The notes: generated by a model not told the origin, from the sequence alone. A stretch of DNA of 64,000 nt from an uncultured Oscillospiraceae bacterium (GCA_902472555.1 CABROF010000001.1:32025-96024), one strand, 5' to 3'. Numbered from the stretch's first letter, positions 11,838 through 56,401 are shown. Translations and numbers: made by a program.

Positions 11838-12956
11838 TTATTTCTGTCTTAGGCAATCGGCTGCAAATTCCGCTCTACTTTTCCATGTATTTTTTCGGGC
11901 AATTTCGGCAATCCGCATACTTTTTTTCTGTAAATCCTCCGGATGATCATGTATATATGAAAGCGCCGCAATAACCGCAGCAGAATGATCTTCTATACAA
12001 TAGCCGATGTCATGCTCCGAAATAAACGCGGCTGCCGCAGATCCTTCTGTAACTAAAATAGGAATCTGATGACCGATATATTCAAATAATTTATATGGCA
12101 TAGCAAAATTTCGATACTCCGAATAGGTATAAATTAAACAGCACAGATCCGCCTGCTGATATAAATCATCCAACTGTCTTCCGGTTTGGTGCACGATTTT
12201 TATAGAACGATCCAGATAAGGGGCGTATCGGCCTCTATTTTCCTCCCACTCCGTCTCTCTGCAGCAAATTGTCAGTTCCGCCTGCGGATAATCATGAACA
12301 CCTACAATCAAGTTCATAATATCATATAATTCTTTTCCAATCCCGCCTATATACAGCAAACGAAGCGGCCGTTCCGTTTCACCTGCCGCTTTCTTTTTTA
12401 CAATCGCACAATCCTCTGTACCTGACGGTAGCGCCTTTTGCCGAACTTTGCAAAAAGCTTTCGGCAGATATCCCCCCATTTTTAGAGACGGCAGAAAAAG
12501 AACATCCAGCAGTCTGCAGTATTGGCGTAAATCATACCGATACAGGCCGACTGAAATAAGACGTTTCCACCAAGCAACATTTTTTTTATATTGATCAAAC
12601 ATCCAATGAATGTCCCTATAAAACAAGCCGATTCTAATTCCCTGCTTTTTACAGTATCTAAAAAAAGAAAAATCAAGGAAGAAGTATTTTGGTATATGAT
12701 TTTTTTCAGTAAAAGCAGTCGGCATGGTGCTGCTTTCGCTGTAAAGGAAATCATACTCTACACCATTTTCGATATTCTTTTTGATCTGCAGAATCTGTTT
12801 TTTCCGATCCGCACCATATCCCATAACAGTATCGGTCTGAAATCCGATATTCTGAAAGGCCTCCAACATCTTTTGCGGTCGAGCCGAGGAAGCAGATTTG
12901 CCGGAAGGATCAATATAACCGGGAAAATGAAAAATACAGCGCCTTATTCCTGACAA
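11838..12956 (-). CDS. Putative GT-B fold glycosyltransferase.
   Basis: C-terminal PYKLFEYIGHQIPILVTEGSAAAAFI is typical of the donor-binding end of GT-B enzymes. The gene is AT-rich relative to the rest of the window. Confidence 0.45.
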   Translation of the reverse strand: MSGIRRCIFHFPGYIDPSGKSASSARPQKMLEAFQNIGFQTDTVMGYGADRKKQILQIKKNIENGVEYDFLYSESSTMPTAFTEKNHIPKYFFLDFSFFRYCKKQGIRIGLFYRDIHWMFDQYKKNVAWWKRLISVGLYRYDLRQYCRLLDVLFLPSLKMGGYLPKAFCKVRQKALPSGTEDCAIVKKKAAGETERPLRLLYIGGIGKELYDIMNLIVGVHDYPQAELTICCRETEWEENRGRYAPYLDRSIKIVHQTGRQLDDLYQQADLCCLIYTYSEYRNFAMPYKLFEYIGHQIPILVTEGSAAAAFISEHDIGYCIEDHSAAVIAALSYIHDHPEDLQKKSMRIAEIARKNTWKSRAEFAADCLRQK

Positions 12957-12997
12957 AGTTGATTACACTCCAATACATTAAAATAAACCGAAAAACT

Positions 12998-14086
12998 CTA
13001 TTCTAATAATCCCTTTAGCAGATCGATTTCCTTTTTTACAGTATTCTGATAACAGTACTTATCATTGGGCGGATACGGTACTCCCGCCGTAAGCTGGTTT
13101 AATATATCAGTTAAATCGATCGGTATATCATTTTTGATGAAAGCAACATTTGGAAATTCATTGAATATCTCATGACAGATCGCGATATCCGAAGTAATCA
13201 AAGGTAAACCATACGTTGCCATTTCACAAGCCATAACGCCCTGGGTATCTTCACGCGTAGGTAGTAATCCGCAACGCGATGCATTAAAAAGCACGAGCAT
13301 TTCAGAATGCTGCAATGTCCGTTCAATCCATGTTAAATTTGGTGCTTTATGGTTATAATTAAAAAATGCACCTTTCCCCACTACTAAAAATCTTAAATTT
13401 GGGTTATATGCAGCAAGTGCATTCACAATATCAATGCCGTATTTTGAATCATCCATACAGGGACGAATTGTAATAAAGTCATATTTTTTTTCACATACAG
13501 GGTCATAAGCATGCTCTTCAAAAATACTTCCTACACTGTTATGAATGATATTTGTTCTATCAGCAATTTTATCTTTTGGAATTTTTGTATAGTCTAAAAA
13601 TTTATTATACAGCCAGTTGCTAACAAATACCAAGTGGCATTTTTCTTTGTAGCGCAAAAAAAATTTTCTCCATTGGAAAAGCTTAAATGTATCATATCTG
13701 TTCTGTATAAAGTTTCGAAGTCCTGACCATCGGCTCATGTATGGAAACGGGGCTGGATATACTTTCGGAATTTTCAGTATCTCGTGTCCATGGAAAAAGA
13801 AAACAAATCGTGGAAAATTGTTGTGATATTTTTTTAAAAACCGGTAATGATTCCGGATATTTGCTGCATGACAAATTAAAATATCATAAAATTCAGGATT
13901 ATTCTTATAGTGCATCAAAGATATTACTGAGATTCCGTCAAATTCATAATCAGAATCACAATTAAAATTTAATACGGTCACATCAATACCGTTTTGAATA
14001 TAGTACTTGTTTCTCACATGTACAAACATTAAAGAGACAGTGCCATCAGGCTTCGGATAATCCACAACCGCAACCAATACTTTCAT
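12998..14086 (-). CDS. Family GT4 glycosyltransferase.
   Basis: GLLPTREDTQGVMACEMATYGLPLITSDIAICHEIF (E-x7-E region). The gene is markedly AT-rich. Confidence 0.7.
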   Translation of the reverse strand: MKVLVAVVDYPKPDGTVSLMFVHVRNKYYIQNGIDVTVLNFNCDSDYEFDGISVISLMHYKNNPEFYDILICHAANIRNHYRFLKKYHNNFPRFVFFFHGHEILKIPKVYPAPFPYMSRWSGLRNFIQNRYDTFKLFQWRKFFLRYKEKCHLVFVSNWLYNKFLDYTKIPKDKIADRTNIIHNSVGSIFEEHAYDPVCEKKYDFITIRPCMDDSKYGIDIVNALAAYNPNLRFLVVGKGAFFNYNHKAPNLTWIERTLQHSEMLVLFNASRCGLLPTREDTQGVMACEMATYGLPLITSDIAICHEIFNEFPNVAFIKNDIPIDLTDILNQLTAGVPYPPNDKYCYQNTVKKEIDLLKGLLE

Positions 14087-30718: not shown

Positions 30719-32023
30719 TCAATCATTTTGTGATATGCCCTTCGATAAACATTGGTATCGATATCTCAATATACTACTTCCACATAGGATAAACGCAACA
30801 CCAATGATCAAAAGTGAAAATGTATTGTCCGCGGTGATTGGGTTCTTCCCATCCACTTCGATCGACCTAACGTCTGCCTTCCAATCTTCATATAAAGTTT
30901 TCGACATTAATGTAATAACAAATGGCTTGTTATCAAAAAGACCTTCTGTGGACGCTAAAACCTTTGCGGCATAAGTTCCCTGTTCTGAAAAAGACAAAGT
31001 TCCGTCACTATTTTCAATTCTTTCATAGTCGGCACTGCATTCTATTATTTGAAGTGAAGAGAATATAATATCTTTTTGGAAATACGTCTGCAACGCATCT
31101 TGCACGCTATACTCAGCAATCTGGGTATATAATAACGGATAATACATAAAATATTTATTTGGTCTTTCACTACGTTCGCCGGTATGTGATGGACAAAACA
31201 GATCGGCCAAGGAACCGCCGTTAATCCTCCAACCGTTTTCTGTATAGATAAAGGATACAGACAAAATTAACGGAACCAGAGCGCCTTGATACTTTTCAGA
31301 AGCGTTATCTAACCTAAGATAACCAAAAGCTTCGCGGGGGTCCCTTTTCTCCATCCAGCAGCCGGTTTGGTCATTGCTGCCGCCAACCTGCATGCTGTCG
31401 AAATTGGTTGGATAAATAATCGGTTGCCAATTCACAGGGGTGTTCTCTAAAAAATATGCTTTGCCTTCATGATTGGTCAGCATTCCCAGCATGTGACCGG
31501 TTCCGCGCCCGTGTTCAATTGCATATTGATAATAATTATCGGTATAAATAGTTTGGGCAAGTTCCTCCCAATACGCGTAATCCGTCATACCCTCTTTCGC
31601 TGGCAAATATTTTACGATATGCCCATTGCGTTCCAAAAAGACAGGTTCGCCACCTTGATCAATATAGGGGGACGCATCATGATAAACCAATTCAAACAGT
31701 TCGCAGGCTTTGGCGCATAACGCAATAATCTCCCCATCCGTAATGCTGTCTTCTGCGGCTTGAACCTTATTCAGTACGCTCACAAATATGGCGTTATCAA
31801 GGCTGCCATCAAATACAAAACCAATCGCCAGCATGTCTATCGCCGGCTGCGCCGTTATGATGGTTCTGTTGACTCTTTGCGCGACCGCTCCAGAAGACCG
31901 CACGCCCATCCGAATCAGCATACCCCAGAAGAGATAAAACTCATTTCCGATATGCGCAGACGGAATCCGGCTGCCGGTCTTATCGTCTTCTGGGTTAAGC
32001 TTACGCAGCGAGGCTGCTCCCAT
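30719..32023 (-). CDS. Hypothetical protein with a C-terminal transmembrane anchor. The true start is probably far downstream of 32023.
   Basis: Protein-like composition over most of its length, with a C-terminal hydrophobic segment LLIIGVAFILCGSSIL. Its first 90 or so codons overlap an IS481-type transposase fragment encoded on the opposite strand. The gene is therefore either shorter or truncated. Confidence 0.35.
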   Translation of the reverse strand: MGAASLRKLNPEDDKTGSRIPSAHIGNEFYLFWGMLIRMGVRSSGAVAQRVNRTIITAQPAIDMLAIGFVFDGSLDNAIFVSVLNKVQAAEDSITDGEIIALCAKACELFELVYHDASPYIDQGGEPVFLERNGHIVKYLPAKEGMTDYAYWEELAQTIYTDNYYQYAIEHGRGTGHMLGMLTNHEGKAYFLENTPVNWQPIIYPTNFDSMQVGGSNDQTGCWMEKRDPREAFGYLRLDNASEKYQGALVPLILSVSFIYTENGWRINGGSLADLFCPSHTGERSERPNKYFMYYPLLYTQIAEYSVQDALQTYFQKDIIFSSLQIIECSADYERIENSDGTLSFSEQGTYAAKVLASTEGLFDNKPFVITLMSKTLYEDWKADVRSIEVDGKNPITADNTFSLLIIGVAFILCGSSILRYRYQCLSKGISQND

Positions 32024-32065
32024 TCGATTTCAGGTCTTTACCGCCTCTTACGGAGACAGGCGTTG
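31760..32065 (+). mobile_element. IS481-family transposase N-terminal fragment (about 100 aa), truncated remnant.
   Basis: YGVIKAAIKYKTNRQHVYRRLRRYDGSVDSLRDRSRRPHAHPNQHTPEEIKLISDMRRRNPAAGLIVFWVKLTQRGCSHSISGLYRLLRRQ carries the family hallmark DRSRRPH.PN.TPEEI ... RNP.(W)G ... YR.L(K/R)RQ. Similarity then breaks off into junk. Confidence 0.5.
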
Positions 32066-32655
32066 ATGGCTCTTTCTATTCTTTTCAGGACTTTGCTGCC
32101 TCAGCTGAAGAGCTACAGCCGCAGAGACTACAATGCCTTTCCTATGCGTCGTTCAAGCAGTTCGAAGAGTTCGCGGATTGTTTTGGCGGGCAGATCCAAA
32201 AGGCGGCAGTTATTGACCTTTCCCTGCGCAATAATTAATTTGGCCTTATTCAGTTCTAAGACGATTTTACGGAAGGTATATTTGTGTTCATCCAGGTAAG
32301 CTTACAGCTTGTTCTGTATGTAGGACAGGACAATGAAACATGACATTTCCCTCGCTGAGCATATACTGTGCAGCCGTCAATATTTCTTTATGATTCTCGG
32401 GAAAGTATTTTTTAATAACTTGGAAACACCCAGCTTTGCTGCTACCTCTTCAAAAACGCGATTCACTCTGCAGTCATATATTCCCGTGGTATTGTATAGC
32501 CTAATTATACCATTTCGCATACAAAAAAATGCAAGCGCTTTTTTCTTGAATTTGCTCTTGTTTTCTTATTTTTCTCAATGTATAGGGTAATTTTCGGAGA
32601 ATTCAGGATTCAGGTTCTATGAAATCGCTTACCTGAAATCAAGTCTTAAAACGCA

Positions 32656-32690
32656 CAAAAACCCGTTGTTTAACGGGTTTTTGTGCCTGC
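32656..32690. terminator. Hairpin AAAAACCCGTTGTTTAACGGGTTTTT downstream of tRNA-Pro. Bidirectional rho-independent terminator.
   Basis: GC-rich stem flanked by A and T runs on both sides. Confidence 0.5.
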
Positions 32691-32711
32691 ATCTATTTTG
32701 TCCTGCAGAGA

Positions 32712-32788
32712 TGGTCGGGATGACAAGATTTGAACTTGCGGCCTCTGCGTCCCGAACGCAGCGCTCTACCAAACTGAGCCACATCCCG
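32712..32788 (-). tRNA. tRNA-Pro (anticodon CGG).
   Basis: The minus-strand sequence CGGGATGTGGCTCAGTTTGGTAGAGCGCTGCGTTCGGGACGCAGAGGCCGCAAGTTCAAATCTTGTCATCCCGACCA folds as a cloverleaf. The acceptor stem is CGGGATG/CATCCCG. The anticodon stem CTGCG/CGCAG carries the loop TTCGGGA. A T-loop TTCAAAT and a 3' CCA are present. Confidence 0.85.
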
Positions 32789-32881
32789 AAAACGTTGTTT
32801 ATACTACCATGTTCCGGGAGCGGCGTCAATAGGTAAAATAAAATTTTTTTCATTTAATCGACTACAATCGGCAAAACGGCA

Positions 32882-33712
32882 TTACAGGAGGGTGCCGGCG
32901 TTTTCAGTCACAGAGACCTCTACAGTCTGGCGCTGTACAGTCTGTCCGGAAAAAAAGCCGCGGTCTACCATACAATCTCCATAGTCCCGGCCATGGCAAA
33001 GCTTGATATAACGGTCGTCCGTACGGCAATTGTTCGTCGGATCCAACCCGATCCAATATTCATCATAAATCTCCACCCAAGCATGTGTCGTGGTCCCGCC
33101 CAGCACAATGCCTGCCGCATATCTGGCATAAATCCCCCGCATCCTGCACAATGCGATCATCAAATGTGCATAGTCCTGACATACGCCTTTTCCCTGCCGG
33201 AACGCCTCCGCCGCAGTGGTTCCCGTATTGGTACTCAAACTCTCGTATCGCATGTTTTGGTATACCATCTTCATGAAATATACAGCCTCCTCCAAAACAG
33301 AAAACACTTCGCTCCGTCCCTCTGTCAGCGATAAATAAAAGCTTCGGATATTTTCCTCATATCGGGTAAAATGGGAGGCATAGCGGTACATCGGATATAC
33401 CAGGTCTGCCTGAAGCTGCTGTTTCTGCAGCGCACTTTCGGCATCCTGGCACGCTACAAACGCCACCCCGGCAACGCAAAAGGTAAAATACGTATGCGGC
33501 TCCAGTATTTTACCAACAAACAGACAATTTCCGAAGCCGTCCGTTACGCGGGAAAGATTGCCGCCGGGATCAATATTGCAATTTACATTATAAATTTTCT
33601 GCGCGGCCGTATTGCCGGGCACGCAGCGGATCGAATAAAAATGGCGGGTAACAGGCGTATCGAACTCCAGCCGCATACCGTACCGGAAATATAATTTACG
33701 CACCCAATACAC
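32882..33712 (-). CDS. Transglutaminase-like protein (Bact_transglu_N plus transglutaminase core cysteine protease-like domain).
   Basis: Catalytic core GKGVCQDYAHLMIALCRMRGIYARYAAGIVLGGTTTHAWVEIY (Cys...His). It is the third gene of the ATP-grasp / Alpha-E / transglutaminase triad. Confidence 0.75.
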   Translation of the reverse strand: MYWVRKLYFRYGMRLEFDTPVTRHFYSIRCVPGNTAAQKIYNVNCNIDPGGNLSRVTDGFGNCLFVGKILEPHTYFTFCVAGVAFVACQDAESALQKQQLQADLVYPMYRYASHFTRYEENIRSFYLSLTEGRSEVFSVLEEAVYFMKMVYQNMRYESLSTNTGTTAAEAFRQGKGVCQDYAHLMIALCRMRGIYARYAAGIVLGGTTTHAWVEIYDEYWIGLDPTNNCRTDDRYIKLCHGRDYGDCMVDRGFFSGQTVQRQTVEVSVTENAGTLL

Positions 33713-33716
33713 CTCT

Positions 33717-34397
33717 CTAAAGAATACAGCGGTTGATAGCCTCCAGAACCGGAAACGGGTCTGCCAGCCAGCTTACGGTATCCATCACATATTCGGAAAT
33801 CAGCGTCAGGGCTTCGGGATCATAAATCCGTTCCCCTTCCATATGCTCCAGAAGACTTCTTAATTTCCGGAATTCATCCTTCACTGTCTCCGTGCGATAT
33901 CCTAAACGGATATATAAATCCAGCCGTTCAATATTTTTTCCGCATTTCATCATGGCTAAGCTCATCCAATCCGCCACATTTTCATCTGCGCTGCCCCAAA
34001 ACGCATATAAGTCATCAATGACAGGCTGGAGCTTCAGAAGCGGCGCCGCATTTTCCCGGTCGTGCCTGAGAGAGTCAATGGCAAGCTGCAGATACGCCAG
34101 CGTCTCGCCTGTCAGCTCGTCCCGCAAAACCACACCGTTGTCAAAAGCATTTACTAAACTGCTGAATACAGAGTTCGGATCCTTTTCATCAAATAAAAAA
34201 CCTGAAATAAATTCCTCCCGCGACGCATACTCCCTGTCGAGCCGCAGTTTTCCGCAGAATACCCGGTAAGCCTCTGCATCCTCATCAATCATAGTATCCA
34301 GATACCAAATCAGGCAGCGGCACGTGGTATGCACGCGTTCACAATACCTGCCCAGCCAGAATAAATGCTCTTTGCGCTCTATTGACATAATACCCAT
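33717..34397 (-). CDS. Alpha-E domain protein.
   Basis: All-alpha protein with the conserved E-R-containing N-terminal segment (HLFWLGRYCERV). Its position between the circularly permuted ATP-grasp and transglutaminase genes matches the Alpha-E family context. Confidence 0.6.
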   Translation of the reverse strand: MGIMSIERKEHLFWLGRYCERVHTTCRCLIWYLDTMIDEDAEAYRVFCGKLRLDREYASREEFISGFLFDEKDPNSVFSSLVNAFDNGVVLRDELTGETLAYLQLAIDSLRHDRENAAPLLKLQPVIDDLYAFWGSADENVADWMSLAMMKCGKNIERLDLYIRLGYRTETVKDEFRKLRSLLEHMEGERIYDPEALTLISEYVMDTVSWLADPFPVLEAINRCIL

Positions 34398-35692
34398 GTA
34401 TCTTTAAACCCTCCCCCCTGCGATGAATTCACAACATAAGAATCTGCTTTTCTTGAAAAACGGGTCAAGCCTCCGGGCCATACCTTGCAGTCCGCGCCAG
34501 TCAGCACAAAAGCACGGAGATCCGCCTTCCGCCATACCTCCTGTCCTTCTTCCATGACAGGCAGTTCCACGAAGTCAATCACTTCCTGCGCAATAAAAGC
34601 TCTCGGATGATCGGAAATTTTACCGCGCAGCTCCGCACGCTGCTCCTCTGTGAGCTTGCTGCCGAATACCACCCCATATCCGCCGGACTCCGCCACATCT
34701 TTTATAACCAGCTGCTCTAAATGCTCTAAGATATATGCGCGGTCCTCCTCATAAAAGGCCAGATAGGTCGGCGCATTGCACAAAATCGGCGTTTCATTTA
34801 AATAATAGGAGATCATTTTCGGTACGAAGTAGTAAATCCCTTTGTCGTCCGCCACACCGTTGCCCGGCGTGTTGATCAATGCCACATTTCCGGCGCGGTA
34901 GGCATCCAGAATATGCGGCACTCCGATCAGAGATTCCGGATAAAATGCCATGGGATCCAGAAATTCATCTGATATCCGCCGGTATAGGGCTCCCACCTGC
35001 TCCTTGCTGCCGTCATACTTTTTATAATAGAGCCGGCAGTCTTCCACAATCAAATCCTCCGGCAGAACCAAAACAGCGCCCGCCTGTTCCGCCAAATATA
35101 AATGTTCAAAAAATGCTGCATTATAGCGGCCGGGCGTCAGGATACAGTTGATTCCGCCGGTGTTGACCGCTTCCATCACCTCACGCAGCATTTCCCCGTA
35201 ACATCGATTTTCCGTAACATTTACATCCTGAAATGCCTCCGGACAAGCCTTTCTGCAAAGCTCTCTGGCAATCAGCGGATAGGAAGCGCCGGATGGAATC
35301 CGCAGGTTATCCTCCAGTACGTACCAGATCCCGTCCTTCCCCTGTACCAGATCAATCCCTGAAATGTGCGCATAAATGCCGCCGGGCGGAAGCACTCCTT
35401 CACAGCATGGCAGATATCCCGGAGAGGCATATACAAACTCTTCCGGCACCACACCGTCCCGCAGAATCATTTTCCCTCCGTAAATATCCGCTAAAAATAG
35501 ATTGAGCGCACGGACCCGCTGAATTAAGCCGCGCTGCAGCAGTTCAAACTCATCTGCACGGATTATGCGCGGGAGCACGTCAAATGGAAACAGCTCCTCG
35601 TGAAATTCATTATTTTTATAGATTCCAAATCGAACGCCGTACCGGGCCAAAAGCTGATTGATTTCGTCCGCATGACGGACCAGTTGGTTCAT
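34379..35692 (-). CDS. Circularly permuted ATP-grasp type 2 family protein (predicted amidoligase).
   Basis: About 437 aa. The sequence features match the CP_ATPgrasp family that always precedes Alpha-E. It overlaps the next gene by 19 nt, which suggests translational coupling. Confidence 0.7.
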   Translation of the reverse strand: MNQLVRHADEINQLLARYGVRFGIYKNNEFHEELFPFDVLPRIIRADEFELLQRGLIQRVRALNLFLADIYGGKMILRDGVVPEEFVYASPGYLPCCEGVLPPGGIYAHISGIDLVQGKDGIWYVLEDNLRIPSGASYPLIARELCRKACPEAFQDVNVTENRCYGEMLREVMEAVNTGGINCILTPGRYNAAFFEHLYLAEQAGAVLVLPEDLIVEDCRLYYKKYDGSKEQVGALYRRISDEFLDPMAFYPESLIGVPHILDAYRAGNVALINTPGNGVADDKGIYYFVPKMISYYLNETPILCNAPTYLAFYEEDRAYILEHLEQLVIKDVAESGGYGVVFGSKLTEEQRAELRGKISDHPRAFIAQEVIDFVELPVMEEGQEVWRKADLRAFVLTGADCKVWPGGLTRFSRKADSYVVNSSQGGGFKDTWVLCQ

Positions 35693-35791
35693 TGTTCCTG
35701 CCTCCAGTTTTATAAATTAATACTTTCCATCCACCCTATTATGTTGTATACTGTACAAAAATATTTATCATTTAAAGGATGTGCATAATTT

Positions 35792-37420
35792 ATGTTGCAA
35801 ATGAAAACACTGCATTCACTCTCACGGGTTTTCCCCGACCGGCCAATACGGGAGGAGGATCTGCAAACACGCGGAAGCATGCTAAAAAATGAAGTTTTTT
35901 CATTTCAGATCGCCTATTGGCTAACAGACGGCGGACAAGTCCCCTGTGTAATTACAGATATCTCGCACACCCTCGGCGATGCGCTGACAATCAGCAGTGT
36001 AAATTTCGTTCCCTGCGACCATCCCGCTGTGCCGGACGCATATCCTTATTGTGAACGCACACAACCCGGATTATTCCCGGATATTCTGCAGCCTATACCA
36101 AAACAGCTCTGGGCTTACGAGGGCTCCTGCCGCAGTCTTTGGCTGCGTGTCGACGGGACAGAAGCGCCGCTGACTCCCGGCGAATATGATATCACCATCT
36201 CCATATTCGCGCTTGGCCAAGGAACAGAGCAGATTACATATCATTTGACCGTTTTAGATGCAGTTCTGCCGCCGCAGACGCTGATCTGCACAAATTGGTT
36301 TCACACAGATTGTCTCTGCAATTATTATCATGTAGAATTTGACAGCGAAGCATATTGGAAAATCACGCAGCAGTTTGCGGAGACAGCAGTAAAATATGGT
36401 ATTAACATGCTTTTGACGCCGATTTTCACGCCGCCCCTGGATACGGAGGTCGGCGGCCAGAGACGTACGATTCAGCTGATCGACGTTCGGAAGGAAGGCA
36501 ATACTTATACCTTCGGATTTGATAAGCTGCATCGCTGGATCGGAATGTGCCGAAAGGCCGGCGTACAGTATTTTGAAATTTCACATTTATATACACAGTG
36601 GGGCTGCAAGCATGCGCCGAAAATCATGGGATATGCAGATGGTACCTATCAGCAGCTGTTCGGCTGGGATACCGAGGCGCAGGGAGCGGAATACCGCGGT
36701 TTTCTATCTCAGCTGCTGCCTGCCCTCACTGCCTTTTTAGACGCAGAAGGGGTACGTGATTGCTGCTATTTCCATGTATCGGATGAACCGTCTATCGAAA
36801 TGCTTGAGGACTACCGCCAAAGCGCTGAATTTTTAAAACAGTATTTAGAGGGATTCCACATTTTCGATGCACTGAGTTCCATTGAATTTTACCGGACCGG
36901 CGCAGTGCCTTGTCCTGTTCCAGCTACAGATCATATCGAGCCGTTTCTGAAAGAAAAGCCCGAAGGCCTCTGGACTTATTACTGCTGCGGCCAGGTAACA
37001 ACGTCAAACCGTTTTTTAGCTTTTTCTTCCGCAAGAAATCGAATTCTCGGCACGCAGCTTTTCCGGTATGATATTGTCGGTTTTCTGCAATGGGGCTTTA
37101 ATTTTTATAATACCTTCCTGTCAAGAGAAACAATTGATCCTTATGCCAGCAGCACGGCCGGCGGCTGGGTTCCGGGAGGCGATACATTCGTGGTATATCC
37201 CGGTCCGGACGGCGAGGCGGTGCCTTCCCTGCGCTTGGAGGTATTCCGAGAGGCACTGCAGGATATGCGGGCACTTCAGGCACTTTCTGCCAAAAAAGGC
37301 AAACAGGCCGTGTTGGCCCTGTTGGATCCGGCGCTCACCTTTAAAAATTTCCGTGATGATCCGCAGGAAATTCTCTCTCTGCGGGAAACCGTAAATCGGA
37401 TGCTGTGCGCATGTGATTAA
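35792..37420 (+). CDS. Hypothetical protein, possibly a DUF4091/GH123-like glycoside hydrolase.
   Basis: 542 aa, no signal peptide. Motifs such as YFHVSDEPS and WTYYCCGQ resemble DUF4091-containing hydrolases. This is from memory only. Confidence 0.3.
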   Translation: MLQMKTLHSLSRVFPDRPIREEDLQTRGSMLKNEVFSFQIAYWLTDGGQVPCVITDISHTLGDALTISSVNFVPCDHPAVPDAYPYCERTQPGLFPDILQPIPKQLWAYEGSCRSLWLRVDGTEAPLTPGEYDITISIFALGQGTEQITYHLTVLDAVLPPQTLICTNWFHTDCLCNYYHVEFDSEAYWKITQQFAETAVKYGINMLLTPIFTPPLDTEVGGQRRTIQLIDVRKEGNTYTFGFDKLHRWIGMCRKAGVQYFEISHLYTQWGCKHAPKIMGYADGTYQQLFGWDTEAQGAEYRGFLSQLLPALTAFLDAEGVRDCCYFHVSDEPSIEMLEDYRQSAEFLKQYLEGFHIFDALSSIEFYRTGAVPCPVPATDHIEPFLKEKPEGLWTYYCCGQVTTSNRFLAFSSARNRILGTQLFRYDIVGFLQWGFNFYNTFLSRETIDPYASSTAGGWVPGGDTFVVYPGPDGEAVPSLRLEVFREALQDMRALQALSAKKGKQAVLALLDPALTFKNFRDDPQEILSLRETVNRMLCACD

Positions 37421-37596
37421 AAGTACATAATACAGATTCTGTTTGAAAAGTAAAGAAAAAGAAAGAATAAACTTAGAACCGCCCGCTCGGACGGTTCTTT
37501 CCGTTATTGCGAAAAAATTTCCAAAGGCGGCAGCAGAAACGCCCCCCAAAAAAAGATACGGCCTTTGATCAAGCTTGTGGTATAGCCGAATACAGC

Positions 37597-39234
37597 CTAA
37601 AACAAGCCTACGATTGTGCCGTCCTCATAAATATCAAGCTGCTGCGCCGAGGGCACTTTCGGCAGCCCCGGCATAGCCAGAACGCTGCCGGTCATAACGA
37701 CAATAAACCCGGCGCCTGCCGAAAGGGTCACTTCTGATACCGAAACCGTAAAATGCTCCGGACGGCCAAGCAGCTTCGCTTTATCCGAAAAGGAATACTG
37801 CGTCTTTGACATACATATGGGCAGATCGCCATAGCCCAAGGCCTCAATATTGGCAATGGCCTCATCTGCCTTTTGGCTGTATTCCACGGCATCCGCACCA
37901 TATATCTCCTGGCAGATACATAAGATCTTATCCTTCACCGGCTGCCGCGTGTCATACAAAGGCCGGAAATCTGCCTGACCCTCTTCAACCAGTGCGACAA
38001 GCGCCTCTGCCAAAGAAATTCCTCCGGCACCGCCCTGTGCATGCACATTGCACAAAGCGGCCAATGTCCCCCGTTCCGCGCAGTATTCCTGTACCAAACG
38101 CAATTCCGCATCCGTGTCGTCTGCGAATTGATTGACTGCCACGATCGGAGGTACGCGGAACTTATGCACATTCTCGATGTGCTTTCCGAGATTTGCAAGT
38201 CCTTCTGTTAAATCACCGTGTCCATGATGCTTCAGCGCCCGGATAGAGACAACAATCACCGCGGCATCCGGTTTCAAGCCCGCCTGTCTGCATTTGATAT
38301 CAAAAAACTTCTCAGCGCCCAGATCCGCACCGAAGCCGGCTTCCGTAATACAATATTCGCCGAGCTTCAGCCCCAGCTTTGTGGCAGTAACGCTGTTGCA
38401 GCCATGCGCAATATTGGCAAAGGGACCGCCGTGCATCAGGGCCGGCGTATTTTCAATCGTCTGAATGAGATTTGGCTTCACTGCATCCTTAAGCAGCAGC
38501 GCCATGGCGCCTTGCACCTTAAGATCGCCTACTGTGACCGGCATGCCGCTTTTATTGTATGCAACGATCATCCTGCTGAGCCGTTCCTTGAGGTCCTGAA
38601 AACCCTCTGCAAGACATAAAATCGCCATGACCTCAGTCGCTACGGTAATCACAAAGCCGTCCTCTCGGGGAATGCCCTGTTTGGCTCCGCCTAAACCGAT
38701 TACAATATGGCGCAGAGAACGGTCGTTCATATCAATACACCGCCGGCAAAAGACTTTATGGACATCAATCTCCAGTGTATTGTCCTGATATATATGATTA
38801 TCCACAACCGCAGCCAGCAGATTATTTGCCGCAGTTACCGCGTGAAGATCCCCTGTAAAATGCAGATTGATATCCTCCATGGGCAGTACCTGCGAATAGC
38901 CGCCGCCGGTAGCGCCGCCTTTGATTCCCATGACCGGCCCCAGCGACGGCTCCCGCAGTGCGATAAACGTCTTTTTTCCGATCCGGTTCAGGGCCTGTCC
39001 CAATCCAATGGTAACCGTCGTTTTTCCCTCTCCCATAGGGGTCGGGTTCATCGCAGTAACCAGCACCAGCTTTCCGTTCCTGCGCTCCTGTATTCCCCGT
39101 ACAAATGTATTCGTTATTTTTGCTTTATAATTTCCGTACAGCTCCAAGGCATCTTCCGGAATTCCCGCCGCAGCCGCTACCTCTCGAATCGGCCGTATGT
39201 CTGCCTGCTGTGCAATCTGAATATCTGTCAGCAT
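37597..39234 (-). CDS. fhs: Formate--tetrahydrofolate ligase.
   Basis: [40 protein letters not shown] ... [16 protein letters not shown] is diagnostic of FTHFS. Confidence 0.95.
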
Positions 39235-39246
39235 AAAATCGATCCT

Positions 39247-40116
39247 TTACCTCTGAATTTTTTCTCCGATTCCCTCGCCCATTTTCACGATGGTCTCATA
39301 ATGCTCCATAGAATTCTTCATGATATCCGCATCAAAACGGACTCTGTCTTTTTTGATCAGCAATACGACGGTAGAACCGCCGAATTCAAAATATCCCTTT
39401 TCCTGACCGCGGATTACATTTTCCGAAGCCTGATGGTTTCGAATCTTTCCGACCACCATGGCGCCAACCTCCATCTGTACTACCGCACCGAAATTTCTGG
39501 TGTTAATAATACAATATTCTCTGGCGTTTTCCTTGTATACGTCGACATAATCCAGCGCTAAGGGATTTACGGTATGCAGCTTGCCCGGAATTTTAACATT
39601 CTCAGTCTTCCAGCCTGAATCCACATAACAATATCTGTGATAATTATCTACGGTCAGACGGATCACCGCACAATAGCCGCCGTTATACCGGAGGGCCAGC
39701 TTTTCATTCTGCAGCAGGGAGGCAACAGAATAATGAGAATTTTTTATATAAAATAAGGTGTCTTCATGAATCGTGTGAACGGATATTTTTCCGTCGCAGG
39801 GACTGATGAGAATGTTGTCATCCATCGCGATCTCCCGCCGTTCCGGTTTGATCCGGCGGGTAAAAAAATCGTTATATGAGCGATACTTCTGTTCAATATA
39901 ATCATCCAGACAAATCCCGTTTTTATTTACAAAGGGTTTGATTGCCACGCGGGATGCCCTTGAATTCAGCACGGCTCCGGAAACACGGGAAAAAGAACGC
40001 GTAACAAGCAGTTTTACCAGCATACGCCCCCATGTTTTCGAATACAAACCGTTTAATACCCGATCCTGCTTTTCATTTCCTGTAATTACATTTCCGCAGC
40101 GATCCTTATAATTCAT
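39247..40116 (-). CDS. psd: Phosphatidylserine decarboxylase proenzyme.
   Basis: FFTRRIKPERREI ... ISPCDGKIS ... FEFGGSTVVLL (the G-S-T self-cleavage site). Confidence 0.85.
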   Translation of the reverse strand: MNYKDRCGNVITGNEKQDRVLNGLYSKTWGRMLVKLLVTRSFSRVSGAVLNSRASRVAIKPFVNKNGICLDDYIEQKYRSYNDFFTRRIKPERREIAMDDNILISPCDGKISVHTIHEDTLFYIKNSHYSVASLLQNEKLALRYNGGYCAVIRLTVDNYHRYCYVDSGWKTENVKIPGKLHTVNPLALDYVDVYKENAREYCIINTRNFGAVVQMEVGAMVVGKIRNHQASENVIRGQEKGYFEFGGSTVVLLIKKDRVRFDADIMKNSMEHYETIVKMGEGIGEKIQR

Positions 40117-40158
40117 GCAATGCCTCCGGATAGATAGATATGATATACGGCTGTAGCC

Positions 40159-40785
40159 TCAAGAACCTAAGATTACGCCGACTAAGACCAGCAGGCCGAC
40201 TCCGCACATAATGACTGTTTCTGCAGTACCCGGCTTTTTCACTTTGACATTCAGCACAAACAGCACCGCAATAACAAGCATGAGGATTCCGTAAAAAAGC
40301 TGATAGTCAAAACCCTTTCCGAGAGGTCTGTCCAAAGCGTATACCATCGGCAGAAACAGTGCTACAGAGGTAACGGGAAGCCCCTGGTAATGCGTTCGCT
40401 TTCCGCTGCTGCCGCGCTGCCGTTCTTCTTCAAAAACATTAAAGTAACCGAGACGGATAATCGCGCCTAAAATATAGACCACAGCTACGGCGATCCAATA
40501 CCAGCGGAAGGTGTCTCGAAAAAAATTATACAGTAAAATAACAGGAAACACGCCGAAACAAACGAGGTCGCACAGAGAATCAATCTGGATTCCGAACATC
40601 TTTTCATGTTCGGAACGCTTCACTTTCGATGCCACACGGCCATCAAACAAATCACAGATGCCGGAAAGCATCAGACATAGGAATGCAATTTTATATGCGC
40701 CGCGCATTGCCATCGCCATACCGACCACAGAAGATGCCAAACCGAAATATGTAAGTATTACTGAACAATTGTAAAATCCTATCAT
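40159..40785 (-). CDS. pssA: CDP-diacylglycerol--serine O-phosphatidyltransferase (CDP-alcohol phosphatidyltransferase family).
   Basis: CDP-OH-transferase motif DLFDGRVASKVKRSEHEKMFGIQIDSLCDLVCFGV. Polytopic membrane protein. It lies upstream of psd. Confidence 0.8.
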   Translation of the reverse strand: MIGFYNCSVILTYFGLASSVVGMAMAMRGAYKIAFLCLMLSGICDLFDGRVASKVKRSEHEKMFGIQIDSLCDLVCFGVFPVILLYNFFRDTFRWYWIAVAVVYILGAIIRLGYFNVFEEERQRGSSGKRTHYQGLPVTSVALFLPMVYALDRPLGKGFDYQLFYGILMLVIAVLFVLNVKVKKPGTAETVIMCGVGLLVLVGVILGS

Positions 40786-40888
40786 AGCTTCAACCCTCAT
40801 TTAATTGACTCTCTTTTGTGCCGTACAAACTATATTGTAAACGGTACAATATATAAATTCAAGTATATTTTATATCCAAAACACACGC

Positions 40889-41281
40889 TCAGCGGTCATT
40901 CAGCTTGCTTTGGGCCTTTTGAAAAAACGGCTCCCGTTCTACAATAAACCGCTCGTGCCGCCCCTTTCCGATCAATCCCTTTCCATCATATGCCGCAACC
41001 TCGAAAACAAGTCGCTTTCTGTCGATTTCAATTAAATTGCTGTCGCACCAGACCTTCATTCCCACCGGCGTGGCAGACACATGCTGTATGTGCAAAGAAA
41101 TGCCTACCGTACAGAAGCCCTCCTCCAGATAAGGCGCCACGCTTTCCGCAGCCGTCAGCTCCATCAATGCCGTTAGAAAAGGAGTTCCGTACACTTCAAG
41201 CAGTCCGCTGCCGATGTGCAGCGCTGTTCTGTCATACGTCACCACGTCCTCAGCATGTCCCTTAATTCCGGTTTCCAGCAT
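40889..41281 (-). CDS. Hotdog-fold thioesterase superfamily protein.
   Basis: About 130 aa with a thioesterase-like core (TALHIGSG ... TVGISLHIQHVSATPVGMKV). Confidence 0.5.
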   Translation of the reverse strand: MLETGIKGHAEDVVTYDRTALHIGSGLLEVYGTPFLTALMELTAAESVAPYLEEGFCTVGISLHIQHVSATPVGMKVWCDSNLIEIDRKRLVFEVAAYDGKGLIGKGRHERFIVEREPFFQKAQSKLNDR

Positions 41282-41359
41282 TGTAAAAACCTCCTATTTT
41301 CTGATTGAATTTTTATTGTATCAAAAATAAAGGTAAAATACAATCAGATGATCTGTACA

Positions 41360-41396
41360 TAAAAAACGCCGCCCTTCAAAAAACAGGACGGCGTTC
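41360..41396 (-). terminator. Rho-independent terminator downstream of the 41444..42550 gene.
   Basis: On the minus strand, the stem AACGCCGTCC...GGGCGGCGTT is followed by TTTTTAT. Confidence 0.45.
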
Positions 41397-41443
41397 CCTC
41401 AATAGCCGCATATTCTTGGTATAAGCATGCCATACAGAAAGGG

Positions 41444-42550
41444 TTACAGGTTTTTCAGCAGGGACAGCACTTCATCAATTTCATCTTTTGTATTGAAATA
41501 GTTAAAGCTAAACCGGACCGTTCCCCGTTCCTGTGTGCCGATCGCTCTGTGCGCAAGCGGCGCACAGTGAAATCCGGGTCTGCTGCAGACGGATTGATCG
41601 CCTAGAAAAGAGCCTACCCGAACCGGATCCCTGCCCTTAATATTGATCGATACCACCCCTGCAAAACGGTCGGGACATTCGGTGCCGCCGTATACGATGA
41701 TATTCGGCAGCCGCAGCGCCCGTTCAACAAAATATTGGCGCAGCGTGCGGTCCTTTGCACGGATCTGCTCCAGACCCACGGATTTTATAAAATCCAGTCC
41801 TGCGCCCAGTGCTGCAACTCCGTGGGTATTTACGGTTCCGGCTTCAAAGCAGTCGGGCATATCCTTAGGCTGCGTCAGTTCAAAGCTTTTGCTGCCGGTT
41901 CCGCCGCACATATACGGCCGAATCCGGACATGCGGCGCAACATAAATGCCGCCGGTCCCCTGTATGCCAAACAATCCTTTGTGACCGGTAAAGCACAATA
42001 CATCAATATTCATTTTTTCTACATCAAGTTCTTCGACGCCTGCACTTTGCGCTGCATCAACAATAAATGTGACGCCCTTCTCTCTGCATGCCGCACCGAT
42101 TTTCCGTATATCGTAAATCTGTCCGGTAACATTTGAAATATGCGTCATCATGACGGCTCCGGTGACATCGGAGATGGATTTAATCACTTTGTCGGCTTCA
42201 ATTCCGCCGTTTCGGTCCGCCTTCACAATATGATAATACCCTCTTGATACGCAGGGCCGCAGTACGGAGTTGTGATCCATTTCTGTAATTACAATCTGTC
42301 CGTAACATAAATTTGCCGCAATATTCAGCGCATGTGTCGCATTCATAGTAAATGCAATGCGCAGCGGGTCTTTTACATGAAATAATTCCGCTGCCTTTTC
42401 CCGCACCTCGAATAATTTATACGCAGACCATTTTGCTGCACTGTGCGTCCCGCGGCCGGGATTTCCCGCGTTCTCCAAGGATTCCAGCAGGGCCTCTTTC
42501 ACACCCGGCGGTTTTGGCCAGCTCGTTGCGGCATTATCAAAATATATCAT
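41444..42550 (-). CDS. Class-V aminotransferase / cysteine desulfurase family protein (NifS/selenocysteine-lyase-like).
   Basis: MIYFDNAATSWPKPPGV ... PLP-lysine region FTGHKGLFGIQGTGGIY. Confidence 0.7.
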   Translation of the reverse strand: MIYFDNAATSWPKPPGVKEALLESLENAGNPGRGTHSAAKWSAYKLFEVREKAAELFHVKDPLRIAFTMNATHALNIAANLCYGQIVITEMDHNSVLRPCVSRGYYHIVKADRNGGIEADKVIKSISDVTGAVMMTHISNVTGQIYDIRKIGAACREKGVTFIVDAAQSAGVEELDVEKMNIDVLCFTGHKGLFGIQGTGGIYVAPHVRIRPYMCGGTGSKSFELTQPKDMPDCFEAGTVNTHGVAALGAGLDFIKSVGLEQIRAKDRTLRQYFVERALRLPNIIVYGGTECPDRFAGVVSINIKGRDPVRVGSFLGDQSVCSRPGFHCAPLAHRAIGTQERGTVRFSFNYFNTKDEIDEVLSLLKNL

Positions 42551-42744
42551 AGAAAAATCAATCCTTTCAAATTCAATCTACAGCCCTTACGGCCTGCTGC
42601 CAAACTGCCGATATTTTATAATATGAATTGAAGCGGATAAAATTGCGCATACTATACAAGATGGAAAGCAGAAGGTCCGGAGTCCGCAGCAAAAGGACTT
42701 TCGCACGAATAAAAAATACAAACTGCGGAGAAACGGAGTCAAAT

Positions 42745-43341
42745 ATGGCAGTAAACTTTTTGGAAAGCGCAACAAAAGAAAATCTCATGCGGGCATTTGC
42801 CGGCGAAAGCCAAGCCAGAAACCGTTATACGTTTGCGGCTTCTCAGGCGAAAAAAGCAAATCTGCACATCATCGAACAATTATTCACTTATACCGCGCAG
42901 CAGGAAAAGGAACACGCGGAAATATTCTATCACTTCTTATCAGCGGCAGCAAAGGAAAATATCAATATCAGCGGCGGATATCCGGTGGATATTTCCGACA
43001 GCATTGCAGATCTTCTGCAGATGGCGCATCATAATGAATATGAAGAATATCAGATTGTCTATAAGCAATTCGGAGATCAGGCAAAAGAAGAGGGATTCGA
43101 CAGCATTGCCGGAACCTTTTATATGATCGCAGGAATTGAAAAAATACATGGAGACCGCTTTGCCCGCTTTGCGGATATGCTGCGGCAGAATCAATTATTT
43201 TCCGCAGATCAGGAAACAGGCTGGCTCTGTCTGAACTGCGGCTATGTGCATACAGGCAAGGAGGCCCCCAAAATATGTCCGGTCTGCAGGCATAATCAGG
43301 GATATTATATCCGGTGGGCAGACTCTCTGTTTGAAAACTGA
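42745..43341 (+). CDS. rbr: Rubrerythrin (ferritin-like diiron domain plus C-terminal rubredoxin-like CxxC...CxxC).
   Basis: ESATKENLMRAFAGESQARNRYTFAASQA ... QQEKEHAE ... WLCLNCGYVHTGKEAPKICPVCRHNQGYY. Start ATG 42745 with an RBS. The track ORF extends to 42628. Confidence 0.9.
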   Translation: MAVNFLESATKENLMRAFAGESQARNRYTFAASQAKKANLHIIEQLFTYTAQQEKEHAEIFYHFLSAAAKENINISGGYPVDISDSIADLLQMAHHNEYEEYQIVYKQFGDQAKEEGFDSIAGTFYMIAGIEKIHGDRFARFADMLRQNQLFSADQETGWLCLNCGYVHTGKEAPKICPVCRHNQGYYIRWADSLFEN

Positions 43342-43378
43342 TCAGCACCATGCCGAACATTGAAAAAGCGAAAAACAC

Positions 43379-43424
43379 TTCTGCCGGAGATTCTGCGCTG
43401 TTTTGACGCAGTTCTCCGGCAGGA
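43379..43424. terminator. Compound hairpin (CTTCTGCCGGAGA ... TCTCCGGCAGGA with an inner CTGCG/CGCAG hairpin) between convergent rbr and the GH43-like gene.
   Basis: Read directly from the sequence. On the minus strand it is followed by GTTTTTCGCTTTTT. Confidence 0.4.
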
Positions 43425-43450
43425 ATCGAAATCAGCGTTATACGCGCTTC

Positions 43451-45566: not shown

Positions 45567-45586
45567 AATCAACCGCCTCTTAAATC

Positions 45587-47364: not shown

Positions 47365-47404
47365 TCAGGAACGCTGCTGAAACAGAAACTTTACAAATGT
47401 TCCG

Positions 47405-54493: not shown

Positions 54494-56401
54494 TTATTCT
54501 CCTTTTCCCCCGTTTTTTCCGTATTTTCTGTGATTTCTCGCCCGAAGCTTTTTTACCTCCGCGCAAAGGGCATCACCGGCGGCTTCTGCCTCTTCCATTG
54601 TATTATAAGGCGAAAAGCTAAGCCTAACCGCTCCGTCGATGGCTTTGACATCATATCCCATAGCCGTCAGGACATGGCTCCGGTTTTTCTTGTGGGACGA
54701 ACAGGCAGATCCGACGGAGAGGAAGACCCCTCTTGCTTCCAAGCTGTGCAGCAGCACTTCGCCCCGCAGCCCCGGAAAAGCCACGCAGAAAATATACGGC
54801 GAACATGTCTCGTCGCTGATCATTTCATAAGTATGCAGCTGACTGCGGATGATTTCCGCAAGACGGTCCCGAATCCGGCGTACATGTGCAGCATGCTGTT
54901 CTATTTCCGCGCACATCTGCTCCGCCGCAACGCGAAATCCGGCAATTGCTGGAAGATTTTCCGTACCAGAGCGCAGACCTGCTTCCTGTCCGCCCCCGAT
55001 CAGAAGCGGATCCATTTTTATCCCTTTTCTGACATACAGAAACCCAACACCTCTGGGACCGTGAATTTTATGACCGCTGCCGCTCAGAAGATCAACTCCC
55101 ATAGATTCTGCGGAAATAGGCAGTTTGCCGAAGCTTTGTACTGCATCCGTATGAAGGACCGTCTGCGGGTTCATCCGGCGGCGAATTTCGGAAATTTCGC
55201 GGATCGGCTGCACCGCACCGGTTTCACTGTTCACATGCATAACGGAAATCAACGCGGTATCCGGCCGTATCATACTCTGCAGTGCAGAAAGGTTGGTCTT
55301 TCCATCCGCATGTACGGGAATCAACTGCACCTCATAGCCGCACTTTTCGAGATATACGGCGGTCTCAAGTACAGACGGATGTTCCGTGGAAGAAACCAAA
55401 ATATGCTTTCCTTTTCTGGGGTTTGCACTTAGATAGCCGCGCAGTGCCCAATTATTGGATTCCGTTCCGCCTGAGGTGAAATAAATATTCCCTGCTGCGC
55501 CGTTTCTCTCAGAAACGCCGATTCCGGCAGCAATGGTCTCCCGGCAGGCCTTCAGTTCTTTTTCTGCCGTCAAGCCGAGATGGTGCAAAGAGGAAGGATT
55601 TCCGTATATCCGGCTGCTGACGCGAACCATTTCCGCCGTCACGGCAGGAAGCTGCCGCGTCGTTGCGCTGTTATCCAAATAAATTGTTTTCTCAAGTTCC
55701 TTTTGTTCTGTATACCGCTGATATAAATCAGGCCGTTTTTTTGCCGTCCTGCTGAGGGCCTGTTCATACCGCCATGCATCTATTTGTGCATGATTTCCGG
55801 AAAGCAGCACTTCTGGGACCGCCATCTGATCAATGATAACCGGCCGTGTATACTGGGGATATTCCAGCAGGCCGTCGGCATGTGATTCCGTCCGATAAGC
55901 CTCCTCGCAGGCAAGTACACCGGGGATCAGGCGGCAGACACAATCAGCAAGCGCCATTGCCGGAATTTCACCTCCGGTCAGCACATAATCACCGATAGAA
56001 ATTTCCTCGTCGACAATCGTATCAAGGACACGTTCGTCGATGCCCTCATAATGGCCGCAGATAATTGCAAGATTATGCTTGCCGGCCAGCCGTTCCGCCG
56101 CCGGCGTCAGCGGTGTTCCCTGAGGCGACATATAAATACAGTACGGCTTTTCATAGCCGGCCTTTTGATTCTCCTCCGTCACATGTGCAAACGCATCCCG
56201 AAGGGGCTGATACGACAGAATCAGTCCGGGACCGCCTCCGTACGGATAATCGTCTACTTTTCCCTGTTTATTGTCCGTATAGTCTCTGATTTGATGAAAA
56301 AAGACAGAAAAACAGCCGTTTTCAATTCCTCTGGCAAGAATGCTTTCCGCAAAGGCAGCCCGTACCATATCAGGAAATAAAGTTAAAATATCAATCCGCA
56401 T
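54494..56401 (-). CDS. trmD: Single 635-aa ORF: tRNA (guanine37-N1)-methyltransferase TrmD (residues about 1..245) fused in frame to a NifS/IscS-type cysteine desulfurase.
   Basis: N-terminus: MRIDILTLFPDMV ... ICGHYEGIDERV ... LTGGEIPAMALADCVCRLIPGVL ... LLSGNHAQIDAWR. It then runs directly into TIYLDNSATT ... SGSGHKIHGPRGVGFLYV (PLP-Lys). There is no stop at the junction near 55690. Confidence 0.75.
   Translation of the reverse strand: MRIDILTLFPDMVRAAFAESILARGIENGCFSVFFHQIRDYTDNKQGKVDDYPYGGGPGLILSYQPLRDAFAHVTEENQKAGYEKPYCIYMSPQGTPLTPAAERLAGKHNLAIICGHYEGIDERVLDTIVDEEISIGDYVLTGGEIPAMALADCVCRLIPGVLACEEAYRTESHADGLLEYPQYTRPVIIDQMAVPEVLLSGNHAQIDAWRYEQALSRTAKKRPDLYQRYTEQKELEKTIYLDNSATTRQLPAVTAEMVRVSSRIYGNPSSLHHLGLTAEKELKACRETIAAGIGVSERNGAAGNIYFTSGGTESNNWALRGYLSANPRKGKHILVSSTEHPSVLETAVYLEKCGYEVQLIPVHADGKTNLSALQSMIRPDTALISVMHVNSETGAVQPIREISEIRRRMNPQTVLHTDAVQSFGKLPISAESMGVDLLSGSGHKIHGPRGVGFLYVRKGIKMDPLLIGGGQEAGLRSGTENLPAIAGFRVAAEQMCAEIEQHAAHVRRIRDRLAEIIRSQLHTYEMISDETCSPYIFCVAFPGLRGEVLLHSLEARGVFLSVGSACSSHKKNRSHVLTAMGYDVKAIDGAVRLSFSPYNTMEEAEAAGDALCAEVKKLRARNHRKYGKNGGKGE

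Follow-up and report, generated by a model that had tools for sequence, protein, structure and literature searches.

Iyer, Abhiman, Burroughs & Aravind (2009, Mol Biosyst 5:1636, as relayed in PMC6376114, PMC5666114 and PMC3597751) predicted that a triad of genes, encoding a circularly permuted ATP-grasp amidoligase, an Alpha-E protein and a transglutaminase-like protein, is a system for peptide synthesis or modification. The papers searched still call the triad uncharacterised (PMC6376114, PMC5666114, bioRxiv 10.64898/2026.04.15.718621). Here we report on a copy in a 64,000-nucleotide stretch of DNA from an uncultured Oscillospiraceae bacterium (GCA_902472555.1 CABROF010000001.1:32025-96024), the whole of which we refer to as the window. 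A preliminary description of this stretch, made from the sequence alone, had noted the three genes and related them to a comparative-genomics triad of unknown role; that triad is indeed the system of Iyer et al. The locus is a typical copy of a widespread, functionally unsolved operon: the mystery belongs to the whole family rather than to this locus, and the copy in the window brings no new principle. What it shows is the minimal three-gene form, kept by selection in an anaerobic, gut-type lineage of Clostridia with no accessory hydrolase. The triad is among the most widespread conserved bacterial operons without a known product, and identifying that product would annotate many thousands of genes together.

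The closest described system is the "Anbu operon" of Proteobacteria and Cyanobacteria, studied in Yersinia bercovieri and Pseudomonas aeruginosa, of which the triad forms the first three genes (PMC6376114, PMC5666114). Release of phosphate from ATP by the Yersinia ATP-grasp protein is the sole biochemical result (PMC6376114; PMC5666114), and neither a complex nor a substrate was found experimentally for the Yersinia and Pseudomonas operons (PMC6376114, PMC5666114). In nitrogen-limited Proteobacteria the operon is switched on alongside genes for scavenging urea, urate and amino acids, and in Burkholderia the cluster is strongly NtrC- and sigma-54-dependent under nitrogen limitation (PMC5491218). 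The triad domains also co-vary with urea-metabolism domains in marine metagenomes (PMC3597751). For Mycobacterium tuberculosis, proteolysis by Rv2569c has been reported in vitro; it was blocked by serine-protease inhibitors but not by E-64 or N-ethylmaleimide (PMC11081392), so the result does not establish activity of the Cys triad.

An intact operon under purifying selection

All of the domains named in the preliminary description were recovered by Pfam profile searches, each above its curated cut-off. The first gene matches CP_ATPgrasp_2 (PF14403) over positions 1-373 of the 374-position profile (E 9.5e-137, 456.4 bits versus a cut-off of 32) and CP_ATPgrasp_1 (PF04174; 1.2e-123, 412.7 bits versus 23.1), and no other Pfam family at E up to 0.01. 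Its product aligns end to end with PDB 3N6X (5e-112, or 3e-134 with a profile), a structural-genomics entry with no function described and presumably from Methylobacillus flagellatus. An AlphaFold2 model built with 30 homologues reached a predicted local distance difference test score of 54, and the sequence match to 3N6X was relied on in place of a fold search with this model. The second gene matches Alpha-E (PF04168) over positions 7-195 of 294 (1.3e-22, 81.3 bits versus 20.8). The Alpha-E motifs WLGRYxER and ERxDLY, which include the conserved ER motif, are invariant; a PDB search returned no solved structure related to Alpha-E by sequence. The third gene contains Bact_transglu_N (4.8e-9, 37.2 bits) and Transglut_core (2e-19, 70.3 bits), and its product is related to PDB 3ISR (1.3e-13), deposited as a "putative cysteine protease". 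Its predicted catalytic residues Cys178, His210 and Asp224 are each at least 97% conserved among 66 aligned sequences. None of the three proteins matched a PADLOC defence-system model at E up to 0.01.

The locus therefore matches the triad of Iyer et al. in its three domains and their order, in the tight packing of its co-directional genes and in an intact Cys-His-Asp. All of the sequence-level features of that triad are present, and judged by them the locus almost certainly belongs to the family. It differs in its short Alpha-E protein (226 aa), in the lack of a fourth, hydrolase gene and in its host, a poorly sampled member of the gut-type Clostridia.

The three minus-strand open reading frames (ORFs) are intact at the coordinates and lengths first given for them (Table 1). 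For the listed starts, the overlap of 19 nt between genes 1 and 2 (34379-34397) and the gap of 4 nt between genes 2 and 3 (33713-33716) are also correct. The overlap suggests translational coupling. Gene 3 probably starts at GTG 33703, which gives a protein of 273 aa instead of 276 and widens the gap to gene 2 to 13 nt: an AGAGG lies 6 nt upstream of this codon, and the gene caller picked the 273-aa form on a contig of the same species (L074, described below). A GGAGG ribosome-binding site (35705-35701) stands 8 nt ahead of the gene 1 ATG at 35692. The operon promoter must lie within the 99 nt that separate gene 1 from a divergent GH123 gene. On the minus strand of this region a consensus scan found no sigma-70-like site, and Rfam found no leader or riboswitch within it.

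Other contigs of the same species provide evidence that these genes are maintained. The metagenome contig L074 is 98.98% identical to the window over 16.5 kb (window 32756-49233), and all three conspecific contigs that reach the region carry the triad. Conspecific contigs from other samples have the order FTHFS-GH123-triad at about 99% identity and end inside or just before a tRNA-Pro gene that follows the operon. Between the window and L074, 31 differences in the three genes are synonymous and 8 are non-synonymous (9 and 1 in the ATP-grasp gene, 12 and 0 in the Alpha-E gene, 10 and 7 in the transglutaminase-like gene), which gives a ratio of non-synonymous to synonymous divergence (pN/pS) of about 0.08. 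Judged by this ratio, the triad is under purifying selection within the species, and the genes are in use rather than decaying beside the insertion sequence (IS) scrap that lies nearby. We conclude that this is an intact, chromosomally resident and selectively maintained three-gene operon.

Within the species, synonymous divergence (pS; window 32882..39234) is 0.029, 0.080 and 0.053 for the three genes, compared with 0.019 for GH123 and 0.013 for FTHFS, all from small counts. The raised values in the triad could reflect chance or a past recombination tract.

Table 1. Coordinates of the operon and of its immediate neighbours in the window
Feature	Coordinates	Strand	Length	Evidence or remark
Gene 1, circularly permuted ATP-grasp amidoligase	34379..35692	-	437 aa	ORF and Pfam
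Gene 2, short Alpha-E protein	33717..34397	-	226 aa	ORF and Pfam
Gene 3, transglutaminase-like cysteine hydrolase-fold protein	32882..33712	-	276 aa as listed	ORF and Pfam
Spacer separating the operon from the divergent GH123 gene	35693..35791	.	99 nt	
GH123 gene	35792..37420	+		GH123_cat 6.8e-106
tRNA-Pro(CGG), neighbour outside the system	32712..32788	-		ARAGORN; Rfam tRNA 68.3 bits
IS481-family transposase 5' fragment, neighbour outside the system	31760..32071	+	about 105 codons	helix-turn-helix part only

Three-gene, five-gene and fused relatives

A search with the ATP-grasp protein gave at least 8000 candidates, each with E of 1e-20 or lower; the best outside the species is 70% identical among the matches listed. 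From a scan with one genome per species we obtained 66 loci, mostly from Lachnospiraceae and other gut Clostridia, together with a few metagenome-assembled genomes (MAGs) labelled Coriobacteriales, Burkholderiaceae, Selenomonadaceae and Thomasclavelia. The order ATP-grasp, Alpha-E, transglutaminase-like and the tight spacing are kept in every one of the 70 related loci that is long enough. Identity to the window is 62-70% for the ATP-grasp protein (66 other species), 29-50% for Alpha-E and 32-44% for the transglutaminase-like protein. Full-length Alpha-E homologues among 98 matches have 221-233 aa, so the short Alpha-E of about 225 aa is, judged by homologue length, the norm of this clade and not a truncation.

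The related loci differ in what follows the triad. We classified 72 sequences by gene number, including the window and its conspecific contigs. In 47 of them, the transglutaminase-like gene is immediately followed by two genes in the same direction that belong to the AstE/AspA family (succinylglutamate desuccinylase / aspartoacylase). Exactly three genes are present in 16 (15 loci and the window itself), and nine sequences are too short to tell. Examples of the AstE/AspA-like pair in the five-gene form are found at L004:10866-12735 and L002:10805-12680, among the loci numbered L001-L070. Both AstE/AspA-like paralogues are M14-related, and the first retains the His-x-x-Glu...His zinc motif. In the second, this motif is replaced by Arg-Gly-Asn-Glu and the later His is lost, so it is probably a non-catalytic pseudoenzyme partner. 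The five-gene variant, seen in Lachnospiraceae and further gut bacteria, shares the triad order and the short Alpha-E with the window, which lacks both AstE/AspA-like genes. The variant itself and the norm of about 225 aa for Alpha-E are new context from this survey. In about 21 five-gene loci a protein of about 186-190 aa with a Sigma70_r3 domain is encoded a few kilobases downstream.

A metagenome scan with the fast-evolving transglutaminase-like protein found two distant soil loci only, at 28-30% identity. A distant locus from a soil metagenome (L072:1261-10389) encodes a 1100-aa transglutaminase/DUF2126 protein, a fusion of ligase and Alpha-E, a transglutaminase-like protein and a Peptidase_Mx zinc peptidase. 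The 852-aa fusion holds CP_ATPgrasp_2 (1.9e-155) and a full-length Alpha-E (2.4e-60) in one polypeptide. This locus and the window agree in the order of their ATP-grasp, Alpha-E and transglutaminase-like domains; the window has neither the fusion with a full-length Alpha-E nor the 1100-aa protein nor the zinc metallopeptidase. M. tuberculosis Rv2566-Rv2569c is also of this fused or large form. The fusion is Rosetta-stone evidence for a complex of ligase and Alpha-E, and like the 19-nt overlap in the window it indicates that the two proteins act together. Two handles on function follow from these comparisons: the helper can be as short as about 225 aa, and its fusion to the ligase elsewhere makes a complex probable.

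Possible chemistry and substrate

We propose a mechanism drawn from ATP-grasp enzymology and gene-context patterns. With ATP, the ATP-grasp protein would convert a carboxylate into an activated acyl-phosphate and couple this to an amine; the product would be an amide, of isopeptide or peptide-like type. Alpha-E, which is all-helical, would be an obligate physical partner of the ligase, acting as a substrate-presenting or regulatory subunit. The transglutaminase-like Cys-His-Asp protein may hydrolyse or transfer the amide bond, trimming or recycling the product. The most likely substrate would be conserved, cellular and not specified by any gene adjoining the operon; amino acids, small peptides and other nitrogen-containing metabolites are examples. 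We consider this explanation of the locus, taken as a whole and with its mechanism included, reasonably probable.

Gene context provides some guidance as to the bond. The slot after the transglutaminase-like gene is filled by AstE/AspA-like zinc enzymes in the 47 loci, by Peptidase_Mx in the soil locus L072 and by Anbu, a proteasome beta-like Ntn hydrolase, in Proteobacteria (PMC6376114, PMC5666114). In the window the tRNA-Pro gene, not Anbu, follows gene 3; no peptidase family, Anbu included, was detected among the scanned window ORFs or in the Pfam list of L074 (window 32756-49233). The recurrence of unrelated amide hydrolases at the fourth position points to an amide-linked product that needs hydrolysis. 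AstE/AspA enzymes act on N-acyl amino acids, from which they liberate a C-terminal amino acid bearing a free carboxylate. Their linkage in relatives suggests a bond between an acyl group and the alpha-amine of an amino acid of this kind, and the hydrolases as a group offer a further handle on function, an amide-linked product with a free carboxylate. As a functional analogy, RimK/RIMKLA-type ligases add an amino acid to a carboxylate at the expense of ATP and are paired with dedicated hydrolases. The likeness is drawn from the chemistry of ATP-grasp enzymes and from the occurrence of AstE/AspA-type deacylase genes beside the operon in relatives; the window ligase belongs to another ATP-grasp family, is circularly permuted and has no known target linked to it.

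As to the nature of the substrate, we lean slightly towards a small compound that is not gene-encoded, rather than a protein target. A small molecule or free peptide is favoured by two patterns from other phyla, the regulation under nitrogen limitation and the co-variation with urea metabolism, and by the failure of others to find protein partners. A conserved ligase beside a drifting Alpha-E and a drifting transglutaminase-like protein would fit an invariant small substrate. A co-evolving ribosomal precursor peptide is an unlikely substrate.

Several points weigh against this reading. We know of no member of the family for which product, substrate or phenotype is known. The strong conservation of the ligase is also compatible with a conserved protein target, and the transglutaminase-like protein could crosslink rather than hydrolyse. 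Pull-downs in Yersinia recovered no stable complex among the operon proteins (PMC6376114). The M. tuberculosis homologues Rv2411c and Rv2567, expressed in a hunt for another activity, were negative for the one unrelated reaction tried, the synthesis of GABA (gamma-aminobutyrate)-trehalose (bioRxiv 10.64898/2026.04.15.718621), a result that does not bear on the real function.

An alternative that deserves weighing is protein tagging of a pupylation- or RimK-like kind. Here the ATP-grasp and Alpha-E proteins would add an amino acid or a short chain to side chains or C-termini of targets encoded elsewhere, and the transglutaminase-like enzyme would remove the tag or crosslink it. This is how Iyer et al. 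2009 read the triad, according to PMC6376114 and PMC5666114, and it fits the association with the proteasome-like Anbu in Proteobacteria (PMC6376114, PMC5666114). The carboxypeptidase-like AstE/AspA genes of the 47 relatives would suit C-terminal trimming, and a conserved protein target could explain why the ligase varies so little. However, a gene for a tag or target is linked to the operon in none of the 70 loci, and the Yersinia and Pseudomonas experiments gave no complex or substrate (PMC6376114, PMC5666114). Induction by nitrogen limitation together with scavenging genes (PMC5491218) and the co-variation with urea metabolism in marine metagenomes (PMC3597751) point to metabolism instead. 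We regard tagging as unlikely.

A more speculative idea, to which we give little credence, is that the minimal gut-Clostridia form is a self-contained, reversible cycle of protein or metabolite amidation with undescribed chemistry. The short Alpha-E adaptor would hold the ATP-grasp protein while an amino acid is attached to a conserved cellular target, and the transglutaminase-like enzyme would serve as eraser. The attached amino acid would probably be acidic, given the AstE/AspA-type deacylases linked in relatives. If true, the cycle would be a bacterial tagging system with a logic like that of pupylation or tubulin glutamylation.

Origin of the locus and its neighbours

The tRNA-Pro gene and IS remnant that the preliminary description placed beside the triad are both present. 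The tRNA gene lies 93 nt downstream of the gene 3 stop, and the IS remnant is one small fragment, single-copy in the window. The tRNA gene has a promoter-like site of its own (TTGACG-17-TAGTAT with TG, 32829..32801, from a promoter scan) and a terminator consisting of a hairpin and T-run at about 32657-32679, within an inverted repeat at 32653-32686. The IS fragment lies past the tRNA 3' end. The ORF that contains it (31760..32299, plus strand) matches positions 8-115 of 284 in the NCBIfam model transpos_IS481 (3.5e-16), and the fragment also matches Pfam HTH_32, HTH_28 and LZ_Tnp_IS481; no DDE/rve catalytic part was found in any frame up to the tRNA. Both tRNA-Pro and the IS481 scrap appear to be incidental neighbours.

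It had been suggested that the module was acquired horizontally at this site. The stronger form of this idea, recent acquisition with tRNA-Pro as integration site and IS elements as vehicles, has some points in its favour. The tRNA gene and the IS481 fragment both occur within 1.2 kb, and the flanking genes differ in all 70 related loci. Closely similar ATP-grasp genes in MAGs labelled Coriobacteriales, Burkholderiaceae, Selenomonadaceae and Erysipelotrichaceae suggest past transfers of the module among gut bacteria. The synonymous divergence of the triad (0.03-0.08) is also somewhat above that of FTHFS and GH123 (0.013-0.019).

The geometry of the site argues against it. Islands that target tRNA genes sit beyond the tRNA 3' end. 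This tRNA is transcribed in the direction of the operon and downstream of it, so the triad lies on its 5' side and its 3' end faces the IS scrap. The expected traces of integration are also missing. No integrase or recombinase domain was found in the scanned window ORFs on either side or in L074 (window 32756-49233). A short-query blastn search of 32690-32810 against the window found no tRNA repeat longer than 14 nt, and hence no attL/attR-like repeat; nor does the window hold a second IS copy. No tRNA-Pro gene occurs within the flanks of about 10 kb around the triad in the 23 relatives checked.

Composition gives no sign of foreign origin either. GC content of the triad is 0.48-0.51 against 0.474 ± 0.038 for the 47 genes of the window (within 1 standard deviation), GC content at third codon positions (GC3) is 0.54-0.56 against 0.490 ± 0.053 (within about 1.4 standard deviations), and the distance in relative synonymous codon usage is 0.076-0.107 against 0.103 ± 0.027 (within 1 standard deviation). 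In these respects the triad resembles the neighbouring housekeeping FTHFS gene. Similarity to other taxa is no higher for the ATP-grasp protein (70%) than for FTHFS (69%), and contigs of the same species from other samples share an identical FTHFS-GH123-triad-tRNA backbone. Acquisition tied to the tRNA or the IS is thus left without support. A recent arrival by that route is very doubtful, and it is likely that the triad was not recently acquired at tRNA-Pro. Counting against our view is that it rests on composition, conspecific contigs and tRNA geometry, not on presence or absence in sister species. The varying flanks and the similar modules in MAGs of several phyla favour mobility on longer time scales.

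The next relatives have FTHFS proteins 68-69% identical to that of the window, and their contigs (L080-L082) have no triad near FTHFS and no other synteny with the window. A scan of a GTDB-based genome collection found no species above 70% ATP-grasp identity. The source lineage is poorly sampled: once a few metagenome contigs of the same species are set aside, the matches listed reach no more than 69% identity for FTHFS and 70% for ATP-grasp.

Could the operon instead be what remains of a five-gene operon after IS activity removed its 3' end? The 47 loci from other species with two extra genes straight after the transglutaminase-like gene would be consistent with this, as would the IS fragment nearby and the lack of any AstE/AspA-like sequence in the 64 kb (tblastn with six proteins, best E 0.007 over 54 aa). 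Yet 15 loci besides the window have exactly three genes, with room for more. In a neighbour-joining tree of the ligase, the window sits on a deep branch beside clades that have three genes (Ca. Fimenecus, Oscillospiraceae, Ruminococcus sp.), and the position of the five-gene form is a nested, derived one; the tree carries no support values, which tempers the placement of the window among three-gene forms. Gene 3 is full length and is separated from the IS scrap by a tRNA with its own promoter, the same junction occurs in conspecific contigs, and the three genes are still under purifying selection. The tree placement, the full-length gene 3 and the stable conspecific junction together argue that the three-gene form is original here and not a truncated five-gene operon. 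A deletion of this kind is highly improbable.

A precursor peptide had been looked for in the preliminary description without success, and we found none either: the intergenic spaces of 99 and 93 nt hold only spurious ORFs, the small ORFs in these flanking spaces being ones that overlap the GH123 start or the tRNA. Rfam returned only the tRNA in the operon region, and no small ORF is conserved across the 70 related loci. Candidate conserved small ORFs in relatives proved to be internal frames of the Alpha-E or first AstE/AspA-like gene or antisense frames of neighbours. A cluster for ribosomally synthesised and post-translationally modified peptides (RiPPs), graspetide- or lasso-like, with the ATP-grasp protein cyclising a precursor and the transglutaminase-like protein as leader protease, can practically be dismissed: ATP-grasp ligases and transglutaminase-fold proteases do both occur in RiPP pathways, and there is a weak NCBIfam match to the lasso B2 protease (NF033537, E 0.0048), but that match scores 17.3 bits, well under the cut-off of 33, no precursor ORF was found in the window or is conserved in the 70 loci, and identity of the ligase stays at 62-70% even between distant taxa, in contrast to RiPP enzymes, which co-evolve with the peptides they act on.

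Beyond the triad, the window is ordinary chromosome, with pdxS/pdxT, thiI, trmD, rimM, pssA, psd, fhs and many carbohydrate-active genes. Two independent conspecific contigs, L074 and L075, terminate at window 32756-32801, inside or just before tRNA-Pro, which suggests that the sequence past the tRNA, on the IS side and not on the triad side, is repeated or strain-variable. An ORF at 30719..32023 (minus strand, 434 aa) matches no Pfam family, has a hydrophobic C-terminal segment and gives a weak match to an LPxTATN-type sorting signal (E 0.0014). Over its first 88 codons it runs antisense to the IS481 fragment, so the gene probably lost its 5' end through IS insertion. Two adjacent glycosyltransferase-like genes at 11838..14086 (minus strand) have GC contents of 0.41 and 0.34 and GC3 of 0.375 and 0.31, against a window mean GC of 0.474. 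As candidates for foreign or variable DNA they are more plausible than the triad. Finally, a 635-aa ORF at 54494..56401 (minus strand), adjoining rimM and thiI, combines a TrmD tRNA (m1G) methyltransferase domain (26-224) with a class-V aminotransferase/cysteine desulfurase-like domain (240-606); either the fusion is an unusual one or two genes are read through here.

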